Sequence record: MZ436830.1
Reading direction: 5' to 3' (one strand)
DNA length: 64,000 nucleotides
DNA from: Escherichia phage JK1
This document shows positions 2-55,351 of the stretch, piece after piece; the first letter of the stretch is position 1, and each line of letters begins with the position of its first letter. The notes beneath the pieces were generated by a model that was given only the letters and a program-made list of their open reading frames with translations, was not told where the DNA came from and searched no databases. The position numbers and the translations under genes were made by a program.

Positions 2-670
2 CTGGAAATCAACCGCGAAGTTGTTGATTGGATTAACTACTCCGCTCAGGCTGGTAAATCTGGTATGACCCTGACTCCGGGTTCTAAAGCTGGTGTATTT
101 GACTTCCAGGACCCAATCGATATTCGTGGTGCTCGCTGGGCGGGTGAATCCTTTAAAGCTCTGTTGTTCCAGATTGACAAAGAAGCAGTTGAAATTGCTC
201 GTCAGACCGGTCGTGGTGAAGGTAACTTCATTATCGCTTCCCGTAACGTAGTTAACGTTCTGGCTTCAGTTGATACTGGCATTTCTTATGCTGCACAAGG
301 TCTGGCTACCGGCTTTAACACTGATACTACCAAGTCAGTATTTGCTGGTGTTCTGGGTGGTAAATACCGCGTATATATCGACCAGTATGCTAAACAGGAT
401 TATTTCACTGTAGGTTATAAAGGTCCGAACGAAATGGATGCTGGTATTTACTATGCTCCATATGTAGCTCTGACTCCGCTGCGTGGTTCCGATCCGAAGA
501 ACTTCCAACCGGTAATGGGGTTCAAAACTCGTTACGGTATCGGTATCAACCCATTTGCAGAATCCGCTGCTCAGGCTCCGGCTTCTCGCATCCAGAGCGG
601 TATGCCTTCTATTCTGAATAGCCTTGGTAAAAACGCTTACTTCCGCCGTGTATATGTTAAAGGTATCTAA
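2..670 (+). CDS. 23: Major capsid protein gp23, C-terminal part (5' end lies outside the window)
   Basis: Open frame from window edge; translation ...FKTRYGIGINPFAESAAQAPASRIQSGMPSILNSLGKNAYFRRVYVKGI matches remembered T4 gp23 C-terminus; followed by hairpin terminator. Confidence 0.9.
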   Translation: MEINREVVDWINYSAQAGKSGMTLTPGSKAGVFDFQDPIDIRGARWAGESFKALLFQIDKEAVEIARQTGRGEGNFIIASRNVVNVLASVDTGISYAAQGLATGFNTDTTKSVFAGVLGGKYRVYIDQYAKQDYFTVGYKGPNEMDAGIYYAPYVALTPLRGSDPKNFQPVMGFKTRYGIGINPFAESAAQAPASRIQSGMPSILNSLGKNAYFRRVYVKGI

Positions 671-44138: not shown

Positions 44139-44146
44139 TATAAATA
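44139..44146 (+). promoter_or_regulatory. Late promoter for gene 34
   Basis: TATAAATA ~35 nt upstream of ATG 44181. Confidence 0.7.
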
Positions 44147-44180: not shown

Positions 44181-47100
44181 ATGGCCGAGATTAAAAGAAA
44201 GTTCAGAGCAGAAGATGGTCTGGACGCAGGTGGTGATAAAATAATCAACGTAGCTTTAGCTGATCGTACCGTAGGAACTGACGGTGTTAACGTTGATTAC
44301 TTAATTCAAGAAAACACAGTTCAACAATACGATCCAACTCGTGGATATTTAAAAGATTTTGTAATCATTTATGATAACCGCTTTTGGGCTGCTATAAATG
44401 ATATTCCAAAACCGGCAGGAGCTTTTAATAGCGGACGCTGGAGAGCATTACGTACCGATGCTAACTGGATTACAGTCTCATCTGGTTCATATCAATTAAA
44501 ATCCGGTGAAGCTATTTCGGTTAACACTGCAGCTGGTAATGATATTACATTTACTTTACCATCTACCCCAATTGACGGTGATACTATCGTTCTCCAAGAT
44601 ATTGGAGGAAAACCTGGAGTTAACCAAGTTTTAATTGTAGCTCCAGTGCAAAGTATTGTAAACTTTAGAGGTGAACAGGTACGTTCAGTACTAATGACTC
44701 ATCCAAAGTCACAGCTAGTTTTAATTTTTAGTAATCGTCTGTGGCAAATGTATGTAGCTGATTATAGTAGAGAAGCTGTAGTTGTAACACCAGCGAATAC
44801 TTATCAAGCGCAATCTAATGATTTTATCGTGCGTAGATTTACTTCTGCTGCACCAATTAATGTTAAACTTCCAAGATTTGCTAATCATGGCGATATTATT
44901 AATTTCGTCGATTTAGATAAACTGAATCCACTTTATCATACAATTGTTACTACATACGATGAAACGACTTCAGTACAAGAAGTTGGAACTCATTCCATTG
45001 AAGGCCGTACATCGATTGACGGTTTCTTGATGTTTGATGATAATGAGAAATTGTGGAGATTGTTTGACGGGGATAGTAAAGCACGTTTACGCATTATAAC
45101 GACTAATTCTAATATTCGTCCAAACGAAGAAGTTATGGTATTTGGTGCGAATAACGGAACAACTCAGACAATTGAACTTCAGCTTCCTACTGATATTTCT
45201 GTTGGTGATACTGTTAAAATTTCCATGAATTACATGAGAAAAGGACAAACAGTTAAAATCAAAGCTGCAGGTGAAGATAAAATTGCTTCTTCAGTTCAAT
45301 TGCTGCAATTCCCAAAACGCTCAGAATATCCACCTGAAGCTGAATGGGTTACAGTTCAAGAATTAGTTTTTAACGGTGAAACTAATTATGTTCCAGTTTT
45401 ACAACTTGCTTATATAGAAGATTCTGATGGAAAATACTGGGTTGTACAGCAAAACGTTCCAACTGTAGAAAGAGTTGATTCTTTAAATGATTCTACTAGA
45501 GCAAGATTAGGCGTAATTGCTTTAGCTACACAAGCTCAAGCTAATGTCGATTTAGAAAATTCTCCACAAAAAGAATTAGCAATTACTCCAGAAACATTAG
45601 CTAATCGTACTGCTACTGAAACTCGTAGAGGTATCGCAAGAATAGCAACTACTGCTCAAGTGAATCAGAACACCACATTCTCTTTTGCTGATGATATTAT
45701 CATCACTCCTAAAAAGCTGAATGAAAGAACTGCTACAGAAACTCGCAGAGGTGTCGCAGAAATTGCTACGCAGCAGGAAACTAATACAGGTACTGATGAT
45801 ACTACAATCATCACTCCTAAAAAGCTTCAAGCTCGTCAAGGTTCTGAATCATTATCTGGTATTGTAACTTTTGTATCTACTGCAGGTGCTACTCCAGCTT
45901 CTAGCCGTGAATTAAATGGTACGAATGTTTATAATAAAAACACTAATAATTTAGTTGTTTCACCTAAAGCTTTGGATCAGTATAAAGCTACTCCAACACA
46001 GCAAGGTGCAGTAATTTTAGCAGTTGAAAGTGAAGTAATTGCTGGACAAAGTCAGGAAGGATGGGCAAATGCTGTTGTAACGCCAGAAACGTTACATAAA
46101 AAGACATCAACTGATGGAAGAATTGGTTTAATTGAAATTGCTACGCAAAGTGAAGTTAATACAGGAACTGATTATACTCGTGCAGTCACTCCTAAAACTT
46201 TAAATGACCGTAGAGCAACTGAAAGTTTAAGTGGTATAGCTGAAATTGCTACACAGGTTGAATTCGACGCAGGCGTCGACGATACTCGTATCTCTACACC
46301 ATTAAAAATTAAAACCAGATTTAATAGTACTGATCGTACTTCTGTTGTTGCTCTATCTGGATTAGTTGAATCAGGAACTCTCTGGGACCATTATACCCTT
46401 AATATTCTTGAAGCAAATGAGACACAGCGTGGTACACTTCGTGTAGCTACACAGGTCGAAGCTGCTGCAGGAACATTAGATAATGTTTTAATAACTCCTA
46501 AAAAGCTTTTAGGTACTAAATCTACCGAATCGCAAGAAGGTGTTATTAAAGTTGCAACTCAGTCTGAAACTGTAGCTGGAACGTCAGCAAATACTGCTGT
46601 ATCTCCAAAAAATTTAAAATGGATTGCGCAGAGTGAACCAACCTGGGCAGCTACTACTGCGATAAGAGGTTTTGTTAAAACTTCATCCGGTTCAATTACA
46701 TTCGTTGGTAATGATACAGTCGGTTCTACCCAAGATTTAGAACTGTATGAGAAAAATAGCTATGCAGTATCACCATATGAATTAAACCGTGTATTAGCAA
46801 ATTATTTACCGTTAAAAGCAAAAGCTGCTGATACAAATTTATTGGATGGTCTAGATTCATCTCAGTTCATTCGTAGGGATATTGCACAGACGGTTAATGG
46901 TTCACTAACCTTAACCCAACAAACGAATCTGAGTGCCCCTCTTGTATCATCTAGTACTGCTACGTTTGGTGGTTCAGTTTCGGCAAATAGTACATTAACT
47001 ATTTCTAATACTGGAACTGCAACTCGTCTGATTTTTGAGAAAGGACCTCAAACTGGAACTAACCCAGCACAGACGATGACTATTAGAGTTTGGGGAAATC

Positions 47101-48050
47101 AGTTTGGCGGCGGTTCAGATACAACACGTTCTACTGTATTTGAAGTTGGTGATGAAACGTCTAATCACTTTTATTCTCAACGTAATAAAGCTGGGAATAT
47201 AACGTTTAGTATCAATGGTACTGTAATGCCAATAAACATTAATGCTTCGGGTTCTTTAAATGCGAATGGCGTTGCAACATTTGGTAGTTCAGTTACAGCC
47301 AATGGTGAATTCATCAGCAAGTCTGCAAATGCTTTTAGAGCAATAAACGGTGATTATGGGTTCTTTATTCGCAATGATGCTGCTAATACCTATTTTATGC
47401 TCACTGCATCCGGTGATCAGACTGGCGGATTTAATGGATTACGTCCTTTGTCTATTAATAATGCATCTGGCCAAGTAACGATTGGTGAAAGCTTAATAAT
47501 TGCCAAAGGTGCTACTATAAATTCAGGTGGTTTGACTGTTAACTCAAGAATTCGTTCTCAGGGTACTAAAACATCTGACTTATATACCCGTGCGCCAACA
47601 TCTGATACTGTAGGATTCTGGTCAATTGATATTAATGATTCAGCTACTTATAACCAGTTCCCGGGTTATTTTAAAATGGTTGAAAAAACTAATGAAGTGA
47701 CTGGACTTCCGTACTTAGAACGTGGCGAAGAAGTTAAATCTCCTGGTACACTGACACAGTTTGGTAACACACTTGATTCGCTTTACCAAGATTGGATTAC
47801 TTATCCAACGACACCAGAAGCGCGTACCACTCGCTGGACACGTACATGGCAGAAAACCAAAAACTCTTGGTCAAGTTTTGTTCAGGTATTTGACGGAGGT
47901 AACCCTCCTCAACCATCTGATATCGGTGCTTTACCATCTGATAATGCTACAATGGGGAATCTTACTATTCGTGATTTCTTACGAATTGGTAATGTTCGCA
48001 TTATTCCTGACCCAGTGAATAAAACTGTTAAATTTGAATGGGTTGAATAA
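44181..48050 (+). CDS. 34: Long tail fiber proximal subunit gp34
   Basis: 1289 aa; internal ~40-aa repeats; late promoter upstream. Confidence 0.9.
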   Translation: MAEIKRKFRAEDGLDAGGDKIINVALADRTVGTDGVNVDYLIQENTVQQYDPTRGYLKDFVIIYDNRFWAAINDIPKPAGAFNSGRWRALRTDANWITVSSGSYQLKSGEAISVNTAAGNDITFTLPSTPIDGDTIVLQDIGGKPGVNQVLIVAPVQSIVNFRGEQVRSVLMTHPKSQLVLIFSNRLWQMYVADYSREAVVVTPANTYQAQSNDFIVRRFTSAAPINVKLPRFANHGDIINFVDLDKLNPLYHTIVTTYDETTSVQEVGTHSIEGRTSIDGFLMFDDNEKLWRLFDGDSKARLRIITTNSNIRPNEEVMVFGANNGTTQTIELQLPTDISVGDTVKISMNYMRKGQTVKIKAAGEDKIASSVQLLQFPKRSEYPPEAEWVTVQELVFNGETNYVPVLQLAYIEDSDGKYWVVQQNVPTVERVDSLNDSTRARLGVIALATQAQANVDLENSPQKELAITPETLANRTATETRRGIARIATTAQVNQNTTFSFADDIIITPKKLNERTATETRRGVAEIATQQETNTGTDDTTIITPKKLQARQGSESLSGIVTFVSTAGATPASSRELNGTNVYNKNTNNLVVSPKALDQYKATPTQQGAVILAVESEVIAGQSQEGWANAVVTPETLHKKTSTDGRIGLIEIATQSEVNTGTDYTRAVTPKTLNDRRATESLSGIAEIATQVEFDAGVDDTRISTPLKIKTRFNSTDRTSVVALSGLVESGTLWDHYTLNILEANETQRGTLRVATQVEAAAGTLDNVLITPKKLLGTKSTESQEGVIKVATQSETVAGTSANTAVSPKNLKWIAQSEPTWAATTAIRGFVKTSSGSITFVGNDTVGSTQDLELYEKNSYAVSPYELNRVLANYLPLKAKAADTNLLDGLDSSQFIRRDIAQTVNGSLTLTQQTNLSAPLVSSSTATFGGSVSANSTLTISNTGTATRLIFEKGPQTGTNPAQTMTIRVWGNQFGGGSDTTRSTVFEVGDETSNHFYSQRNKAGNITFSINGTVMPININASGSLNANGVATFGSSVTANGEFISKSANAFRAINGDYGFFIRNDAANTYFMLTASGDQTGGFNGLRPLSINNASGQVTIGESLIIAKGATINSGGLTVNSRIRSQGTKTSDLYTRAPTSDTVGFWSIDINDSATYNQFPGYFKMVEKTNEVTGLPYLERGEEVKSPGTLTQFGNTLDSLYQDWITYPTTPEARTTRWTRTWQKTKNSWSSFVQVFDGGNPPQPSDIGALPSDNATMGNLTIRDFLRIGNVRIIPDPVNKTVKFEWVE
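45580..46640 (+). repeat. Internal ~40-codon sequence repeats within gene 34
   Basis: At least seven copies of pattern (I/V)TPxxL...T(E/D)...G(I/V)...IAT(Q/T)xE. Confidence 0.6.
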
Positions 48051-48058
48051 GAGGTATT

Positions 48059-49174
48059 ATGGAAAAATTTATGGCAGAGTTTGGACAAGGATATGTCCAA
48101 ACACCATTTTTATCGGAAAGCAATTCAGTAAGATATAAAATAAGCATAGCGGGTTCTTGCCCGCTTTCTACAGCAGGACCATACGTTAAATTTCAGGATA
48201 ATCCTGTAGGAAGTCAAACATTTAGCGCAGGCCTTCATTTAAGAGTTTTTGACCCTTCCACCGGAGCATTAGTTGATAGTAAATCATATGCTTTTTCGAC
48301 TTCAAATGATACTACATCAGCTGCCTTTGTTAGTTTCATGAATTCTTTGACGAATAATCGAATTGTTGCTATATTAACTAACGGAAAGGTTAATTTTCCT
48401 CCTGAAGTAGTATCTTGGTTAAGAACCGCCGGAACGTCTGCTTTTCCATCTGACTCTATATTGTCAAGATTCGACGTATCATATGCTGCTTTTTATACTT
48501 CTTCTAAAAGAGCTATTGCATTAGAGCATGTTAAACTGAGTAATAGAAAAAGCACAGATGATTATCAAACTATTTTAGATGTTGTATTTGACAGTTTAGA
48601 AGACGTCGGAGCTACCGGGTTTCCAAGAAGAACGTATGAAAGTGTTGAGCAATTTATGTCGGCAGTCGGTGGAACTAATAACGAAATTGCGAGATTGCCA
48701 ACTTCAGCTGCTATAAGTAAATTATCTGATTATAATTTAATTCCTGGTGATGTTCTTTATCTTAAAGCACAGCTATATGCTGATGCTGATTTACTTGCAC
48801 TTGGAACTACAAATATATCTATCCGTTTTTATAATGCATCTAATGGATATATTTCCTCGACACAAGCTGAGTTTACTGGGCAAGCTGGGTCATGGGAATT
48901 AAAGGAAGATTATGTAGTTGTTCCAGAAAACGCAGTAGGATTTACGATATATGCACAAAGAACTGCGCAAGCTGGCCAAGGTGGCATGAGAAATTTAAGC
49001 TTTTCTGAAGTATCAAGAAACGGCGGTATTTCAAAACCTGCTGAATTTGGCGTCAATGGTATTCGTGTTAATTATATCTGTGAATCTGCTTCACCTCCGG
49101 ATATAATGGTACTTCCTACGCAAGCATCGTCTAAAGCTGGTAAAGTGTTTGGACAAGAATTTAGAGAAGTTTAA
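48059..49174 (+). CDS. 35: Long tail fiber hinge protein gp35
   Basis: 371 aa; synteny; hairpin terminator after stop. Confidence 0.85.
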   Translation: MEKFMAEFGQGYVQTPFLSESNSVRYKISIAGSCPLSTAGPYVKFQDNPVGSQTFSAGLHLRVFDPSTGALVDSKSYAFSTSNDTTSAAFVSFMNSLTNNRIVAILTNGKVNFPPEVVSWLRTAGTSAFPSDSILSRFDVSYAAFYTSSKRAIALEHVKLSNRKSTDDYQTILDVVFDSLEDVGATGFPRRTYESVEQFMSAVGGTNNEIARLPTSAAISKLSDYNLIPGDVLYLKAQLYADADLLALGTTNISIRFYNASNGYISSTQAEFTGQAGSWELKEDYVVVPENAVGFTIYAQRTAQAGQGGMRNLSFSEVSRNGGISKPAEFGVNGIRVNYICESASPPDIMVLPTQASSKAGKVFGQEFREV

Positions 49175-49179
49175 ATTGA

Positions 49180-49205
49180 GGGAGCCTTCGGGTTCCCTTT
49201 TTCTT
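49180..49205 (+). terminator. Intrinsic terminator after gene 35
   Basis: GGGAGCCUUCGGGUUCCC hairpin then UUUUUCUUU. Confidence 0.7.
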
Positions 49206-49213
49206 TATAAATA
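49206..49213 (+). promoter_or_regulatory. Late promoter for genes 36-37-38
   Basis: TATAAATA ~24 nt upstream of ATG 49237. Confidence 0.7.
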
Positions 49214-49236
49214 CTATTAAAATAAAGGGGCATACA

Positions 49237-49899
49237 ATGGCTGATTTAAAAGTAGGTTCAACAACTGGAGGCTCTGTCATTTGGCATCAAGGAAATTTTC
49301 CATTGAATCCAGCCGGTGACGATGTACTCTATAAATCATTTAAAATATATTCAGAATATAATAAACCGCAAGCTGCTGATAACGATTTCGTTTCTAAAGC
49401 TAATGGTGGTACTTACGCCGCGACTGTTCGATTTAATGGAGGCGTACATGTTCCTACTATAGGTAGTAGTCAACAGTGTGGTGTTTATCCAGGTAACGGT
49501 GATGCAGCTACTTTTGCTATGGCAAATATTGACATCGTTTCGTGGAATGGTATTGGTTTTAAATCATCACAAGGTTCAGCAGACCGAACTGTAGTAATTA
49601 ATACACGCAATGGTGATATTAGTACAAAAGGCGTTGTGACAGCAGTAGGTCAAATAAGAAGTAATGCAGTTTCTCCTGTATCAGCAAATGACCTTACTAG
49701 AAAGGACTATGTTGATGGAGCAATAAATACTGTTACGGCAAATGCGAACTCTAGAGTGTTGCGTTCTGGCGACACTATGACAGGTAATTTAACCGCACCA
49801 AACTTTTTCTCGCAGAATCCCGCATCTCAACCTTCACATGTTCCACGATTTGACCAAATCGTAATTAAGGATTCTGTTCAAGATTTCGGCTATTATTAA
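49237..49899 (+). CDS. 36: Long tail fiber proximal connector gp36
   Basis: 220 aa; late promoter at 49206-49213. Confidence 0.85.
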
Positions 49900-49907
49900 G
49901 AGGACTT

Positions 49908-52900
49908 ATGGCTACTTTAAAACAAATACAATTTAAAAGAAGCAAAACCGCAGGTGCACGTCCTGCTGCTTCAGTATTAGCCGAAGGTGAATTGGCTATA
50001 AACTTAAAAGATAGAACAATTTTTACTAAAGATGATACAGGAAATATCATTGATCTAGGTATTGCTAAAGGCGGTCAAATTGATGGAAATGTAACTATTG
50101 ATGGAACTTTACGCGTCAATGGACCAATAAACAACTTTGGAAATTTTTCTACAAGTGGTACTATTACGGCAAGTAATATTGTTTCTGCTACAGTATTCAG
50201 ATCAACATCCGGTTCATTTTATACAAGAGCAATAAATGATACTGCAAATGCCCATCTTTGGTTTGAAAATACAAATGGCTCAGAACGTGGCGTTTTATAT
50301 TCAAAACCGCAGTCTGAAAATGAAGGCGTAATTACAATGCGTGTTCGTCAAGGAACCGCTGCGGGAGCTCAAAATTCAGAATTTCATTTCATTTCTACTG
50401 ATGGCGGTATCTTCCAGGCACGCAAATTAACTGCTTTAACTTCTATTAGTACACCAACTATTAGTGTTAATTTAATTAATCATGATTCTAAAGCCTTTGG
50501 ACAATACGATTCACAATCTTTGGTTAACTATGTTTATCCTGGAACCGGTGAAACAAATGGTGTAAACTATCTTCGTAAAGTTCGTGCTAAGTCAGGCGGA
50601 ACTATGTGGCATGAAATCTGTACAGCTCAGACAGGACAAGCTGATGAAATGTCATGGTGGACTGGTAATACTCCTCAGTCTAAACAATACGGTATTCGTA
50701 ATGACGGACGAATGGCTGGACGTAATAGCCTTGCATTAGGTACATTCACTACAAATTTCCCGTCTAGTGATTATGGCAACGTCGGTGTAATGGGCGATAA
50801 ATATCTTGTTCTCGGTGACACTGTAACTGGCTTGTCATACAAAAAAACTGGTGTATTTGATCTAGTTGGCGGTGGATATTCTGTTGCTTCTATTACTCCT
50901 GACAGTTTCCGTAGTACTCGTAAAGGTATATTTGGTCGTTCCGAGGACCAAGGCACCACATGGATTATGCCTGGAACTAATGCCGCTTTCTTGTCTGTTC
51001 AAACGCAAGCTGATAATAACAATGCTGGAGACGGCCAGACGCATATTGGGTACAATGCTGGCGGTAAAATGAGTCATTATTTCCGCGGTAAAGGCAAAAC
51101 TAATATTAATACTCAGGAAGGTGTAGACGTTAACCCGGGTATATTGAAGTTAACCACCGGCGGTGAAAGTATTAGCTTTAATGCCGCAACTGGAAGTATT
51201 AATTCTACATTAGCTTTTCGTCTTAATAAAGGCATAATTATTGATGGACCTGATAATCAGGGATTCCAGTTTAACGCCCCGACGGCTGCAGATGGTACTA
51301 GAAGTATATACTGGAACAGTGGTACTCGCGCAGGTCAAAACAAAAGCCCTGTTACAGTTAAAGTGTGGGGTAATTCATTTAACGCATCGGGCGATCGTGC
51401 TCGTGAAACGGTTTTTGAAGTAGCTGATGGGCAAGGTTACCATTTTTATTCTCAGCGAGTTGCTCCCGGATCAGGTTCTACTGTCGGACCTATTCAATTT
51501 CGAGTTAATGGTGGTTTATTAACTTCTGGTGGTATTACATCATCTGGTTCTATTGTTACTGAATCAAGTTTAGTTGCCAATAATGGCATGTCAGTAAATG
51601 GTCAGGCTAAATTTGGCGGAACAGCAAACGCACTGAGAATTTGGAACGCTGAATACGGTGTTATTTTCCGTCGTTCTGAAAGTAACTTTTACATTATTCC
51701 AACCAATCAAAATGAAGGCGAAAGCGGAGACATTCATAGCTCTTTGAGACCTGTAAGAATAGGATTAAACGATGGCATGGTTGGGTTAGGAAGAGATTCT
51801 TTTATAGTAGATCAAAATAATGCTTTAACTACGATAAACAGTAACTCTCGCATTAATGCCAACTTTAGAATGCAATTAGGGCAGTCGACATATATTGATG
51901 CAGAATGCACTGATGCCGTTAGACCTGCAGGGGCTGGTTCATTTGCCTCGCAAAATAATGAAAACGTCCGTGCTCCGTTCTATATGAATATTAATCGCAC
52001 AGATACAAGTACTTACGTTCCAATTGTTAAACAGAGATACGTACAAAATAATAGTTGCTATTCTATTGGTACTTTAATAAATGGCGGTAACTTCAGAGTT
52101 CATTATCATGAAGGTGGTGATGGCGGTTCTACTGGCGCGATTATAAAGGATTTAGGTTGGGAATTTAATAAAAACGGTGATTTTTACTCTCCTGGTAAAT
52201 TAGGTGCTGGAAATATTCGTATCGGAACAGACGGTAATATTACGGGTGGTTCTGGTAATTTTGCTAACTTGAATACCACATTAAACCGTAAGGTCAATTC
52301 CGGATTTGTAACATACGGTGCAACTGCTGGATGGTATAAATTCGCTACAGTAACGATGCCACAATCTACTTCTACTGTTTCATTTACTATAACTGGTGGT
52401 AAAGGATTTAATACTGGACTGTTTACACAGTGTGCTATAACAGAAATTGTTCTTCGTACTGGTAATGACCGCCCAGCAGGTTTAAACGCCGTGATGTATA
52501 CCAGAACAGCTGCAGGTCTTACTGATATTGCTGTAGTTAATACCTCAGGAAATACATATGATATCTATGTTGAATCGGGTACTTATGCCAACCAATTAGC
52601 TTATACTTGGCATACAGTTGATAATGCTACCGTAGAAGTTATCGGCGCTTTTGGTCCTACTCAAAACCCAGTAGATTCTTTGCCAGTTGATCATGTTAAA
52701 GGCCAAGTAGCTAACATGCTTAACAACCTAGTAGACACTGGTAAAGTAAAACGCTATGTAGCAGAGTCGGAAATTGCTATTAATAACCCAACTGGTATTC
52801 GTATTACGAGTAATTATGATAGATCAGGTTCTAATTCCGTTTTATTTCGAAATGACGGTGGAAGCTTCTATATTTTACTGACCGACAAAAACTCTTCAGA

Positions 52901-53846
52901 CGGCGATAATAAAGCAACTGAAGGTGATTGGAATGGAAAACGACCATTTTCAATTGATATGACTGCTGGTACTGTTCGTCTTGGCGAAAATACTTCTTTT
53001 GGTAAAGATGTTACTATTGATGGAAGCATTAATTCACGAGTTAAAGTTGTCGGACAGTGGAATGTTGGCTTTTCTGATATTTCAGATGTGACTCGTGACC
53101 GTTCTGCATTTTTAGTGAATACGGGTGGCATTTCCAAGACAAGTCAATCTTATTACCCGCTATTTTCTGGATACAGTTTTTTAACTGACGCAGGTTATCG
53201 CCAATCGTTTGAATTTGGATGGTTAGGTGTTTCTGGTACTTGGCGTCAAGGCATTATTCGCATGCGTGGTGACAACCCATCGGGGCAACAGGCTCGTTGG
53301 ACTTTTGATATGGACGGAACATTTTATGCTCCTATACTATCATGCGGATCTGCGAGAGCATTCGGTGTCAATACATCAAATGGTCTCGGTGGAAACAGTA
53401 TAACATTTGGTGATAGCGATACTGGTATTAAGCAAAATGGCGATGGATTATTAGACATATATGCGAACAGCGTACAAGTGTTCCGTTTCCAAAACGGTGA
53501 TTTGTACTCATACAAAAATATAAATGCTCCAAACGTTTATATTCGTTCTGATATTCGTTTAAAATCCAACTTTAAGCCTATCGAAAATGCACTTGATAAA
53601 GTTGAAAAACTTAACGGTGTCATTTACGATAAAGCTGAATACATCGGTGGAGAGGCAATTGAAACTGAAGCGGGTATTGTGGCTCAAACGTTACAAGACG
53701 TTTTACCAGAAGCTGTCCGTGAAACAGAAGACAGCAAGGGTAATAAAATACTCACTGTTTCTTCTCAAGCCCAGATCGCTCTTCTGGTTGAAGCTGTGAA
53801 AACGCTTTCTTCTCGTGTAAAAGAACTTGAATCTAAACTTATGTAA
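49908..53846 (+). CDS. 37: Long tail fiber distal subunit gp37 with C-terminal intramolecular chaperone domain
   Basis: 1312 aa; C-terminal ~107 aa carry the S-D-x-R-x-K style autocleavage/chaperone signature ([10 protein letters not shown]...). Confidence 0.9.
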
Positions 53847-53876
53847 AAGAGGGCTTCGGCCCTCTAAGGATTTTTA

Positions 53877-54662
53877 ATGGCAATTGTAGGTGTTCCTGGC
53901 TGGATTGGTGAATCTGCCGTGAATGAAACTGGACAACGTTGGATGGATGCTGCAATGAGAGCAGTCCGTGTTTCAGTTCCCGGTTGGATGAGCTCAATGG
54001 CCGGACAATCTAAAGAAGTATATTATAGCATTGGTGCTAGTAATTCTTATAATAAAGATACATTAATAAACTGGATAAAAGCACAAGGGTCCACGCCTGT
54101 TGTTATTACTATTACAGGAAATATTGTTTCTCAATCTACTGGTGTTCCATGCTTAGATTTTCCTAGCTCATTAACTAATGCATACGTGACACTTAATATC
54201 AATTCAGGCGTGCATGTTTGGGGCCGTGGCGGGAATGGCGGAAATAACTCTGCCGGTGGAGCAGGAGGAACTGCAATAAATAATGGAATTGGAACTAGAT
54301 TGCGTATTAACAACAATGGTGTTATCGCAGGAGGCGGTGGCGGCGGTGGAGGCGGATATTATTCTCCTTTTTCACAAATGAAATTGACTTTTGGCGGTGG
54401 CGGCGGTCGTCCATTTGGTGCTGCTGGCGGGTCTGCTAATATGGAACAGGGCGCTACTGCTGGTACTATTTCTGCACCTGGTAAAGGGTCTGTCAATGGT
54501 ATCTATAATGGCGGGAATGGCGGTGATGCTGGTGCCGCAGGTGGTAAATGTAATATTCGTGGGCAAGGATCAGAATATAACGGCGGTGCGGCCGGTAAAG
54601 CTGTTACTGGTAATGCTCCAACTTGGACTAAGGTTGGTACAATATATGGTTCAAGAGTATAA
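53877..54662 (+). CDS. 38: Receptor-recognising tail fiber adhesin gp38 (T2/T6 type)
   Basis: 261 aa; poly-glycine motifs (GGGGGGGGGYY, GGGGGRPFG, NGGNGGDAG) separating variable segments. Confidence 0.85.
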   Translation: MAIVGVPGWIGESAVNETGQRWMDAAMRAVRVSVPGWMSSMAGQSKEVYYSIGASNSYNKDTLINWIKAQGSTPVVITITGNIVSQSTGVPCLDFPSSLTNAYVTLNINSGVHVWGRGGNGGNNSAGGAGGTAINNGIGTRLRINNNGVIAGGGGGGGGGYYSPFSQMKLTFGGGGGRPFGAAGGSANMEQGATAGTISAPGKGSVNGIYNGGNGGDAGAAGGKCNIRGQGSEYNGGAAGKAVTGNAPTWTKVGTIYGSRV

Positions 54663-54694
54663 TTTTTGAATAAATATCCTTAAAAGGAGGGTCT

Positions 54695-55351
54695 ATGGCA
54701 GCACCTAGAATATCATTTTCGCCCTCTGATATTCTATTTGGTGTTCTAGATCGCTTGTTCAAAGATAACGCTACCGGGAAAGTTCTTGCTTCCCGGGTAG
54801 CTGTCGTAATTCTTTTATTTATGATGGCGATTGTTTGGTATAGGGGAGATAGTTTCTTTGAGTACTATAAGCAATCAAAGTATGAAACATACAGTGAAAT
54901 TATTGAAAAGGAAAGAAATGCACGCTTTGAATCTGTCGCCCTGGAACAACTCCAGATAGTTCATATATCATCTGAGGCAGACTTTAGTGCGGTGTATTCT
55001 TTCCGCCCTAAAAACTTAAACTATTTTGTTGATATTATAGCATACGAAGGAAGATTACCTTCAACAATAACTGAAAAATCACTTGGAGGATATCCTGTTG
55101 ATAAAACTATGGATGAATATATAGTTCATTTAAATGGACGTCATTATTATTCTGACTCAAAATTTGCTTTTTTACCAACTAAAAAGCCTACTCCCGAAAT
55201 AAACTACATGTACAGTTGTCCATATTTTAATTTGGATAATATCTATGCTGGAACGATAACCATGTACTGGTATAGAAATGATCATATAAGTAATGACCGC
55301 CTTGAATCAATATGTGCTCAGGCGGCCAGAATATTAGGAAGGGCTAAATAA
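54695..55351 (+). CDS. t: Holin T
   Basis: 218 aa; single N-terminal TM segment (VVILLFMMAIVWY) with large periplasmic domain; AAAGGAGG RBS. Confidence 0.9.
   Translation: MAAPRISFSPSDILFGVLDRLFKDNATGKVLASRVAVVILLFMMAIVWYRGDSFFEYYKQSKYETYSEIIEKERNARFESVALEQLQIVHISSEADFSAVYSFRPKNLNYFVDIIAYEGRLPSTITEKSLGGYPVDKTMDEYIVHLNGRHYYSDSKFAFLPTKKPTPEINYMYSCPYFNLDNIYAGTITMYWYRNDHISNDRLESICAQAARILGRAK

Follow-up and report, generated by a model that had tools for sequence, protein, structure and literature searches.

The closest described counterparts of the locus examined here are the long tail fibre tips of the phages T2, T6, S16 and FriedrichMiescher (Bas39). The fibre protein gp37 of T2 is reportedly processed proteolytically at its C-terminus (Drexler et al. 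1986), and S16 is said to recognise OmpC of Salmonella (Marti et al. 2013). From work on endosialidases and MYRF, a catalytic role is known for a serine and a lysine. In S16, the gp37 cleavage site is DLNVS^SDRRIKK, and removal of the C-terminal module exposes the face on which gp38 docks (PMC7917993). The S16 gp38 protein caps gp37 by means of three tryptophans and a polyglycine sandwich, and its glycine motifs form a hydrogen-bonded lattice of polyglycine helices (PMC6851490). Nearly all gp38 proteins that recognise Tsx have one common set of variable segments (PMC3157838).

As listed in Table 1, the window, i.e. the whole stretch of 64,000 nucleotides that was analysed, encodes the end at which the long tail fibre of a Tequatrovirus recognises its receptor; the phage is one of the T2/T6-like phages of E. 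coli, and its backbone is ~97% identical to those of JK38 and teqdroes. The open reading frames of g37 (1312 aa) and g38 (261 aa) are as stated in the first-pass annotation, and gp37 ends in the residues KELESKLM. Gene g38 sits between the chaperone-ending g37 and the holin gene t, an arrangement that recurs in 40+ related loci, and the nucleotide identity of t with every T-even relative compared was 90-100% (mostly 97-100%). The profile matches of the gp37 chaperone and gp38 features were all far beyond chance. Scans of the whole window for tRNAs and Rfam families gave no match. The exact TATAAATA box, which we take to be the T4 late-promoter consensus, likely drives g36-g37-g38, judging from what is known of T4; an exact TATAAATA was found neither from codon 1 of g37 to g38 nor directly 5' of g38. 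The sequence TATAAATG at 53519-53526 is one mismatch away from TATAAATA. The hairpin AGAGGGCTTCGGCCCTCT, located shortly before the ribosome-binding site of g38 (AAGGA, 53866-53870), has a folding energy of -13.4 kcal/mol (z = -2.07) and was flagged as terminator-like; it may act as an mRNA stabiliser or as a partial terminator.

Table 1. Features of the tail fibre tip region; nucleotide positions are those of the window, amino acid (aa) positions those of the protein named.
Feature	Position	Strand	Basis
TATAAATA box, 24 nt upstream of g36	49206..49213	+	exact match
g37, long tail fibre distal subunit, 1312 aa	49908..53846, stop codon included	+	ORF; Pfam Gp34_trimer and Peptidase_S74
gp37 aa 1160-1213, distal tip, predicted gp38 docking platform, ends NVYIR	53385..53546	+	S16 homology, T2 identity
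gp37 aa 1214-1312, intramolecular chaperone, Peptidase_S74	53547..53843	+	Pfam, PHROG, S16 cleavage-site alignment
gp37 S1214 and K1219, candidate catalytic pair	53547-53549 and 53562-53564	+	
C(UUCG)G tetraloop hairpin AGAGGGCTTCGGCCCTCT, between g37 stop and g38 ribosome-binding site	53848..53865	+	folding
g38, monomeric tail-fibre tip adhesin, 261 aa	53877..54662, stop codon included	+	Pfam Gp38_N and GP38
gp38 aa 1-46, attachment domain, invariant W9, W22, W37	53877..54014	+	Pfam Gp38_N over aa 1-42
gp38 aa 47-115, linker and beta-helix body	54015..54221	+	S16 alignment; mean entropy 1.35 bit
gp38 aa 116-240, predicted receptor-binding polyglycine domain	54222..54596	+	entropy profile, S16 alignment
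gp38 glycine motifs	aa 116-122, 127-131, 151-160, 173-185, 212-223, 236-240	+	
HVS1	gp38 aa 123-126, 54243-54254	+	entropy profile
HVS2	gp38 aa 161-172, 54357-54392	+	entropy profile
HVS3	gp38 aa 186-211, 54432-54509	+	entropy profile
HVS4	gp38 aa 224-235, 54546-54581	+	entropy profile
Direct GGN-codon repeats GGCGGTGGCGGCGGT at 54333 and 54393, 87% copy at 54342	54333..54407	+	flank HVS2
t, holin, conserved right flank of the cassette	54695..55351	+	Pfam Phage_holin_T, E 5e-116

When the whole gp37 protein was searched, Peptidase_S74 matched aa 1214-1271 of 1312 with an E-value of 3e-15 and 56.7 bits, and with the chaperone segment alone the match covered positions 1-58 of the 58-position profile (E 7e-17, 61.9 bits), the curated cut-off being 22 bits. 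This segment aligns with the extreme C-terminus of the 25 PHROG families listed (32 matching), 22 of which are labelled tail. Both S16 gp37 (6f45_A) and the auto-processing domain of MYRF (7dc3) are homologues of the C-terminal module, the homology to S16 starting at gp37 aa 1158. The site reads YIR^SDIRLK, with S1214 at the predicted scissile bond and K1219 five residues on, and it aligns both with the S16 site and with the beginning of the MYRF domain. Upstream of gp38 homologues, 44 fibre ORFs were recovered, and 42 of them carry the motif VYIR^SDxRxK at 92-117 aa from their C-terminus. By analogy with its relatives, gp37 is predicted to cleave itself between R1213 and S1214 (53546/53547), releasing 99 aa, and NAPNVYIR would remain on the mature fibre. 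The first-pass annotation had placed a chaperone module of ~107 residues at the gp37 end, beginning at N1206 (codon from 53523); the whole-profile match upholds the module itself, but its length is 99 aa, and the domain proper runs from S1214 (53547).

Turning to gp38, the protein matched Pfam Gp38_N (PF21721, E 8e-18) and GP38 (PF05268, E 3.5e-72), as well as PHROG 2056 'tail fiber protein; host specificity' (E 2e-105) and PP01 gp38 (9v85, E 1e-33), and aligned over its full length with the crystal structure of S16 gp38 (6f45_D, E 2.7e-49). A full-length alignment to T4 gp38 (183 aa) was also sought and came out negative, BLASTP giving E = 19 with 5/23 identities, i.e. no similarity, which together with the S16 match confirms the initial assignment of gp38 as a T2/T6-type adhesin and not a T4 chaperone. 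The protein contains AGGGGGGGGGYY, GGGGGRPFG and NGGNGGDAG. Among 27 distinct homologues, the mean column entropy was 0.4-1.0 bit in the glycine motifs versus 2.1-2.7 bit in the segments between them, thus the glycine blocks do separate variable loops as had been proposed by eye, and the variable span given then (54222-54602, gp38 aa 116-242) is accurate. The same scheme of glycine motifs and variable segments is described in PMC3157838 and PMC12032242. The three tryptophans W9, W22 and W37 are invariant across the gp38 homologues compared and align with those of S16 gp38, and the glycine run of aa 151-160 (G152-G160) lines up with the S16 poly-Gly run, which is helix 3, residues 151-158 (PMC6851490). 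An AlphaFold2 model of gp38 alone, made from the single sequence, was unusable (pLDDT 29.5, pTM 0.25), and for that reason the loop positions rest on the S16 alignment; at the level of sequence homology, the S16 crystal structure settles the fold.

The names under which these proteins are deposited would allow a different reading of gp38, as several GenBank records name a protein of the same sequence 'distal long tail fiber assembly catalyst' or 'tail assembly protein', which would suit an assembly chaperone of the T4 type that is absent from the virion. These are legacy names, and the lack of similarity to T4 gp38, the homology of the whole protein to the adhesins of S16 and PP01, for which structures have been solved, and the T4 RefSeq annotation, which itself calls the 'gp38' of the T2 subfamily unrelated, make such a role practically untenable. 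It is also hardly credible that the C-terminal module of gp37 remains part of the virion in a structural role instead of being released as a chaperone. Not all Peptidase_S74 matches have been tested biochemically, but the Ser is conserved, as is the Lys five residues on, and 98 of the 99 residues are those of T2 gp37, which reportedly is processed. Moreover, the S16 docking face for gp38 is exposed only once the module has been removed (PMC7917993).

The cassette comprising the putatively self-cleaving gp37 end and gp38 had been given a left edge at 53523. In 11 loci with unrelated shafts, nucleotide identity of 94-99% starts exactly at 53385, and the edge was moved to ~53385, adding the 54-aa docking tip of gp37. 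Judged from these comparisons, the stretch ~53385-54662 (gp37 tip, chaperone and gp38) behaves as an exchangeable module, and identical gp38 proteins are found behind gp37 proteins of 1237, 1253, 1260, 1261, 1273, 1289, 1301 and 1311 aa, and behind one split gene. The g37 gene shows 99.2% nucleotide identity to that of vB_Eco_Geo, the window being 100% identical to this phage until 53572, whereas most of g38 is 100% identical to BGP/Bas39, and Geo is down to 45-85% there. The window thus reads as a vB_Eco_Geo-type gp37 shaft joined to a Bas39-type adhesin. This pairing was absent from the phage collection searched, and an exact search of a public assembly index for the 1312-aa gp37 returned no record. 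Equating the window with vB_Eco_EL (gp37 of 1311 aa, identical gp38) was rejected, since the EL shaft is unrelated upstream of ~53190.

The gp38 protein occurs with 100% identity in 14 phage records, about a dozen phages (FriedrichMiescher, JLBYU22, teqhal, teqsoen, slur02/04/11/13, vB_Eco_BGP, vB_Eco_EL, vB_Eco_QOTSP and JK38). FriedrichMiescher (Bas39, MZ501066) is Tsx-dependent according to the BASEL S5 table, the BASEL receptor calls having been made on E. coli K-12. The segments HVS2, HVS3 and HVS4 are identical to those of T6 at 10/12, 20/26 and 10/12 positions, compared to 3/12, 18/30 and 7/12 for the OmpA-dependent Bas45 and 0/12, 5/26 and 3/15 for T2, and the match to OmpA-, OmpF- and FadL-type adhesins is much below that to T6. 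Based on the T6-kind loops and the identity to the gp38 of the Tsx-dependent Bas39, the nucleoside channel Tsx is predicted to serve as primary receptor on E. coli K-12. By its sequence, gp38 appears to be a combination of T6-like (Tsx) variable loops and a T2-like attachment domain. Of note, the loops of Bas43, another phage that uses Tsx, are rather different (6/12, 13/26 and 3/14), and because of this the map from sequence to receptor is loose. Sf22 was not among the 45 best-ranked gp38 matches.

It is quite unlikely, but deserves consideration, that the adhesin is as described and yet uses in its real host a receptor other than, or besides, Tsx (OmpA, OmpC, OmpF, FadL or LPS). Over the whole of gp38, the OmpA-dependent Bas45 is the closer relative (87% versus 65% for T6), thus overall identity misleads, and in phage PST a few changes in HVS2 and HVS3 add OmpA recognition (PMC3157838), therefore loop similarity by itself is not decisive. 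Several carriers of this gp38 are of Shigella origin, JK38 with the identical protein and A2 with 99.6% identity being recorded from this host, where another receptor could matter, and the loss of infection upon removal of a primary receptor is often not absolute (BASEL). Against this stand the residue-for-residue identity with the gp38 of Bas39 and the fact that the loops that discriminate Tsx from OmpA (HVS2 and the HVS3 insertion) are in the T6 form, and Tsx remains the receptor we favour. Another question concerns how the loops vary. The runs of GGN codons had initially been called prone to both slippage and recombination, and they could in theory constitute a slippage-driven hypervariable (contingency) locus that alters the length of gp38 codon by codon. 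The GGN-rich runs do contain short direct repeats, and in the related Yersinia phage ZN18 a stretch of 51 nt is exactly duplicated in tandem; the duplication is bounded by such repeats and has the same spacing as 54342/54393. However, the codons of the 9-Gly run are mixed (GGA GGC GGT GGC GGC GGT GGA GGC GGA), the longest perfect triplet repeat in it being two units, GGCGGC, and Tandem Repeats Finder detected a weak 9-nt period only. The glycine motifs of the 27 distinct homologues differ by substitutions and not by single-codon indels, the sole length change being the 17-aa duplication of ZN18. Their length is presumably constrained, given the polyglycine lattice of S16 (PMC6851490), and the word 'slippage' is absent from PMC3157838. 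Altogether, this makes a slippage locus very unlikely, and we retained only recombination between glycine motifs, for which the repeats, the ZN18 duplication and the mosaic structure argue.

The repeats flanking HVS2 are a substrate for unequal crossing-over. A further-reaching proposal is that the pair at 54342 and 54393, 51 nt apart, predisposes to a ZN18-like duplication of 17 aa, comprising a glycine motif and HVS2, as a recurrent and selectable way of widening the host range from E. coli Tsx to other hosts, and that, separately, the Geo-shaft/Bas39-adhesin combination is an undeposited natural recombinant with its crossover in the chaperone-coding segment; we regard this as rather unlikely. 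A literature search for the ZN18/PYps47T duplication returned only irrelevant results.

Taken together, we consider it very probable that the locus encodes a tip cassette with a self-cleaving gp37 chaperone, a gp38 cap, Tsx as predicted receptor, and the properties of an exchangeable module. What was observed directly is the homology, the limits of the domains, the conservation of motifs, the mosaic structure, and the identity of gp38 with deposited adhesins, and cleavage, capping and Tsx binding are modelled on T2, S16 and Bas39. The predicted place of gp38 at the fibre tip of the virion, and its predicted receptor binding, are carried over from S16 (PMC6851490) and from the genetics of T6 (PMC3157838). 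The gp37 trimer would fold with the aid of its own C-terminal 99-aa chaperone (aa 1214-1312), and upon completion of the trimer each chain would cut itself between R1213 and S1214, after which the chaperone would depart. Its loss would expose a flat trimeric tip ending in ...NVYIR, on which a single gp38 would sit as a cap, with W9, W22 and W37 inserted into three equivalent pockets. In gp38 aa 116-240, the conserved glycine motifs would form a polyglycine sandwich that presents the four variable segments as distal receptor-contacting loops, and loops of the T6 kind would make contact with Tsx.

The tip cassette identified at the outset is correct but ordinary; the system is already known, and the biology of T-even adhesins gains nothing from it. 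For annotation and phage therapy, the analysis offers a concrete, predicted receptor call (Tsx), and for engineering it provides limits: a swap point at ~53385, a cleavage position at 53546/53547, and the coordinate spans of four variable loops. It also illustrates that one adhesin travels among many fibre shafts and that whole-protein identity is a poor guide to the receptor.

Among the known systems compared, Bas39 has a gp38 that is the same at 261/261 aa, a gp37 tip that is the same at 53/54 and a chaperone at 99/99, and its gene order g36-g37-g38-t-asiA is that of the window. Its gp37 shaft differs, with 1260 aa versus 1312 aa here and a patchy ~70-88% nucleotide identity upstream of 53385. 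The gp38 of T6, the classical Tsx adhesin, and that of WilhelmHis/Bas35 share 10-11/12, 20/26 and 10-11/12 residues of HVS2, HVS3 and HVS4 with the window, and are 79-80% identical in the C-terminal domain. In the N-terminal 115 aa, however, T6 gp38 is only 47% identical (30/46 over aa 1-46), and the T6 gp37 tip and chaperone are a different variant, with 12/54 and 42/113 aa identical and a chaperone of 113 aa. The opposite holds for T2, where the last 153 aa of gp37 contain one difference (tip 54/54, chaperone 98/99) and aa 1-46 of gp38 match at 45/46, but the variable segments of gp38 are unrelated and the phage is listed as targeting FadL. With S16 (PDB 6F45), the alignment takes in the three tryptophans, the central poly-Gly helix, and both tip and chaperone of gp37, whereas the loops differ, and in S16 the chaperone counts 113 aa, with its cut at S^S instead of R^S. 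More distantly, the Peptidase_S74 domains of endosialidases and tailspikes and the MYRF domain resemble the gp37 end over the whole profile, in the cut-site Ser and the Lys five residues later, in the C-terminal helical segment, and in their location at the very C-terminal end of a trimeric fibre. In the endosialidases and tailspikes the cleaved face is the end of the fibre, whereas here it would be the docking site for a separate adhesin.

The T-even long tail fibre cluster occupies 44181-55351 on the (+) strand of the window, and the first-pass annotation, made from the sequence alone, was correct in all its ORF lengths, coordinates, and quoted peptides. The backbone is that of a Tequatrovirus, and 24 kb of the window share ~97% identity with Shigella phage JK38, teqdroes, and FriedrichMiescher. 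Exact TATAAATA boxes, the T4 late-promoter consensus, are present at 44139-44146 before g34 and at 49206-49213 before g36, and none is located directly before g38; the 12 such boxes in the window do not exceed the number expected from shuffling (8.9 +/- 2.5). A C(UUCG)G tetraloop hairpin (AGAGGGCTTCGGCCCTCT, 53848-53865, -13.4 kcal/mol) separates the g37 stop from the g38 Shine-Dalgarno sequence, and is also terminator-like since AAGGATTTTT comes next. In gp37, aa 464-671 (51297-51920) are homologous to the gp34 C-terminal region (PDB 4UXE/5NXF, E ~5e-17; Pfam Gp34_trimer) and are a shaft module common to the proximal and distal half-fibres. In the deposited records, g37 of JK38 (L056 1-4469, MK962755) appears as a pair of overlapping ORFs (906+ and 594 aa), and the otherwise identical g38 of Sf25 (MF327009, 83801-84471) is annotated in two pieces, reflecting either frameshifts or sequencing errors.

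Genes of the tail fibre cluster and segments of gp38, with mean column entropy over 27 gp38 sequences
Feature	Position	Strand	Length (aa)	Entropy (bit)
g34	44181-48050	+	1289	
g35	48059-49174	+	371	
g36	49237-49899	+	220	
g37	49908-53846	+	1312	
g38	53877-54662	+	261	
t (holin)	54695-55351	+	218	
Glycine motif	aa 116-122			0.40
Variable segment HVS1	aa 123-126			2.37
Glycine motif	aa 127-131			0.97
Glycine motif	aa 151-160			0.65
Variable segment HVS2	aa 161-172			2.69
Glycine motif	aa 173-185			0.70
Variable segment HVS3	aa 186-211			2.08
Glycine motif	aa 212-223			0.99
Variable segment HVS4	aa 224-235			2.57
Glycine motif	aa 236-240			0.79

The locus is a textbook T2/T6-type adhesin cassette, and the earlier interpretation holds with minor corrections. 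That gp38 is a T2/T6-type adhesin and not the T4 chaperone was borne out: there is no full-length alignment to T4 gp38, since BLASTP found no similarity (E = 19), and the whole length of the protein aligns with gp38 of Salmonella phage S16 (6F45 chain D, E 2.7e-49) and of PP01 (9V85, E 1e-33). Pfam recognizes two domains, Gp38_N (aa 1-42, E 8e-18) followed by GP38 (aa 47-261, E 3.5e-72), and PHROG 2056 ('tail fiber protein; host specificity') spans the entire protein (E 2e-105). W9, W22, and W37 are invariant in the gp38 alignments and match the S16 tryptophans that, according to the authors of the structure, insert into three pockets of the gp37 trimer (PMC6851490).

A putative different type of tip protein was observed in IMG/VR contigs (L031-L047, many ~176-183 kb), where an ORF from ~1186-1201 encodes a 158-176-aa protein with Gp38_N (Pfam E 1e-17 to 6e-22, four tested) and a non-glycine C-terminal part without Pfam match. 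Nearly all are preceded by a fibre ORF ending in VYIR|SDxRxK and a 92-98-aa chaperone, and these proteins look like alternative tip adhesins using the same docking system.

To profile conservation, gp38 was taken from 37 IMG/VR loci and seven reference phages, and 27 distinct full-length sequences were retained. The resulting entropy pattern is that of the published scheme of five glycine-rich motifs and four hypervariable segments (PMC3157838, PMC12032242), and agrees with the variable span of 54222-54602 proposed before. The GGN runs had been considered prone to both slippage and recombination. Codon slippage is not supported: the nine-glycine run uses mixed codons (GGA GGC GGT GGC GGC GGT GGA GGC GGA), Tandem Repeats Finder gave only a weak 9-nt period, and none of the 27 distinct homologues showed a single-codon length change in the glycine motifs. 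Recombination is supported, with exact 15-nt direct repeats at 54333/54393 and 54227/54509, and with the T6-like g38 of Yersinia phage vB_YepM_ZN18 (L013 1662-1778, MN716856), in which 51 nt are exactly duplicated in tandem (2.3 copies at 100% match). This duplication adds 17 aa (GGGGGYYSPFSQMRLTF, the last part of a glycine motif together with HVS2), resulting in a gp38 of 277 aa, and the window GGN repeats at 54342 and 54393 (within 54342-54407) have the same 51-nt spacing. The g38 of PYps47T (834 nt) is equal in length to that of ZN18.

With two exceptions, the related loci compared share 94-99% nucleotide identity with the window starting precisely at 53385 (gp37 aa 1160). The boundary is abrupt in 11 loci with unrelated gp37 shafts, and high identity continues through g38 and t, whereas the upstream shaft is 70% identical or unalignable. 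The exchangeable module therefore takes in the 54-aa docking tip, and the left edge set previously at 53523, where codon N1206 begins, lies 138 nt too far to the right. The gp37 proteins preceding an identical gp38 come in at least nine lengths; they measure 1237, 1253, 1260, 1261, 1273, 1289, 1301, and 1311 aa, in addition to one split gene, and the window gp37 measures 1312 aa. The window shaft is 99.2% identical to that of vB_Eco_Geo, with zero mismatches over 53200-53572, and 54100-54639 is 100% identical to vB_Eco_BGP, whereas Geo shows 45-85% over most of this span. Informative sites place the crossover at ~53570-53740, within the chaperone-coding part. The best record in the phage collection for 52700-54700 reached at most 92.2%, and the exact 1312-aa gp37 is not on record; the shaft-adhesin pairing is thus new to the collections searched, each half being already known.

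The same gp38 has been deposited many times, being 100% identical in 14 records from about a dozen phages, including FriedrichMiescher, JLBYU22, teqhal, teqsoen, slur phages, vB_Eco_BGP, vB_Eco_EL, vB_Eco_QOTSP, and JK38, and the receptor of one carrier has been assigned experimentally: the BASEL S5 table lists Tsx and LPS deep core for FriedrichMiescher (Bas39).

Per-segment identity between the window gp38 and reference adhesins, with the receptor listed for each reference
Reference	Receptor	HVS2	HVS3	HVS4	aa 1-115
T6	Tsx	10/12	20/26	10/12	54/115
Bas35	Tsx	11/12	20/26	11/12	53/115
Bas43	Tsx	6/12	13/26	3/14	112/115
Bas45	OmpA	3/12	18/30	7/12	110/115
T2	FadL	0/12	5/26	3/15	88/115
Bas38	OmpF	1/12	5/26	3/15	57/115

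With 45 of the first 46 residues identical to T2, gp38 is a mosaic of a T2-like attachment half and a T6-like binding half. Whole-protein identity is misleading with respect to the receptor, since OmpA-dependent Bas45 is 87% identical and T6, which uses Tsx, 65%, in agreement with the reported closeness of one OmpA type to Tsx adhesins (PMC12032242). Relative to window 53877-54659, the Bas45 gp38 (PaulHMueller, L058 6147-6926) mainly lacks 5 aa in HVS2 and carries 4 additional aa in HVS3. Based on these comparisons, the receptor of the window gp38 is very probably Tsx, with the caveats that a few loop changes can add receptors, as in phage PST (PMC3157838), and that several carriers of this gp38 are from Shigella. 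The Krischvirus gp38s of GEC-3S, Sf20, and JK32 are 87-89% identical to that of the window and may be of the OmpA kind, as Bas45; the Bas45 loop pattern is present in L011, the one Krischvirus-length locus examined.

The proposed C-terminal chaperone of gp37 was recovered as a match to Peptidase_S74, the 'chaperone of endosialidase' family, spanning aa 1214-1271 (E 3e-15, 56.7 bits; Pfam cut-off 22 bits), and searching aa 1214-1312 alone covered the full profile (E 7e-17). Among 32 matching PHROG families, the 25 listed (22 labelled tail) are hit by this segment at their extreme C-terminus. In PDB sequence searches, aa 1158-1310 matched the S16 gp37 fragment of 6F45, and aa 1214-1277 the auto-processing domain of myelin regulatory factor (7DC3). 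Self-cleavage of S16 gp37 is reported to occur at DLNVS^SDRRIKK, releasing 113 residues and thereby exposing the gp38 docking face, and this site has been aligned to DVYIR^SDGRLKI of other phages (PMC7917993). Since the window reads NVYIR^SDIRLKS at the aligned site, a cut is predicted at R1213|S1214 (53546/53547), which would release 99 aa. The length of about 107 residues given earlier is therefore eight too many, because NAPNVYIR is predicted to remain on the mature fibre. VYIR-SDxRxK, or a close variant, is found 92-117 residues from the C-terminus in 42 of the 44 fibre ORFs recovered upstream of a gp38 homologue. The last 153 aa of gp37 show a single difference from T2 gp37 (tip 54/54, chaperone 98/99 identical), and proteolytic processing of gp37 was reportedly described in T2 by Drexler et al. 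in 1986 (cited in PMC3157838). Compared with S16, where a 113-aa piece is released at S^S, the piece predicted for the window gp37 is 99 aa and the cut is at R^S.
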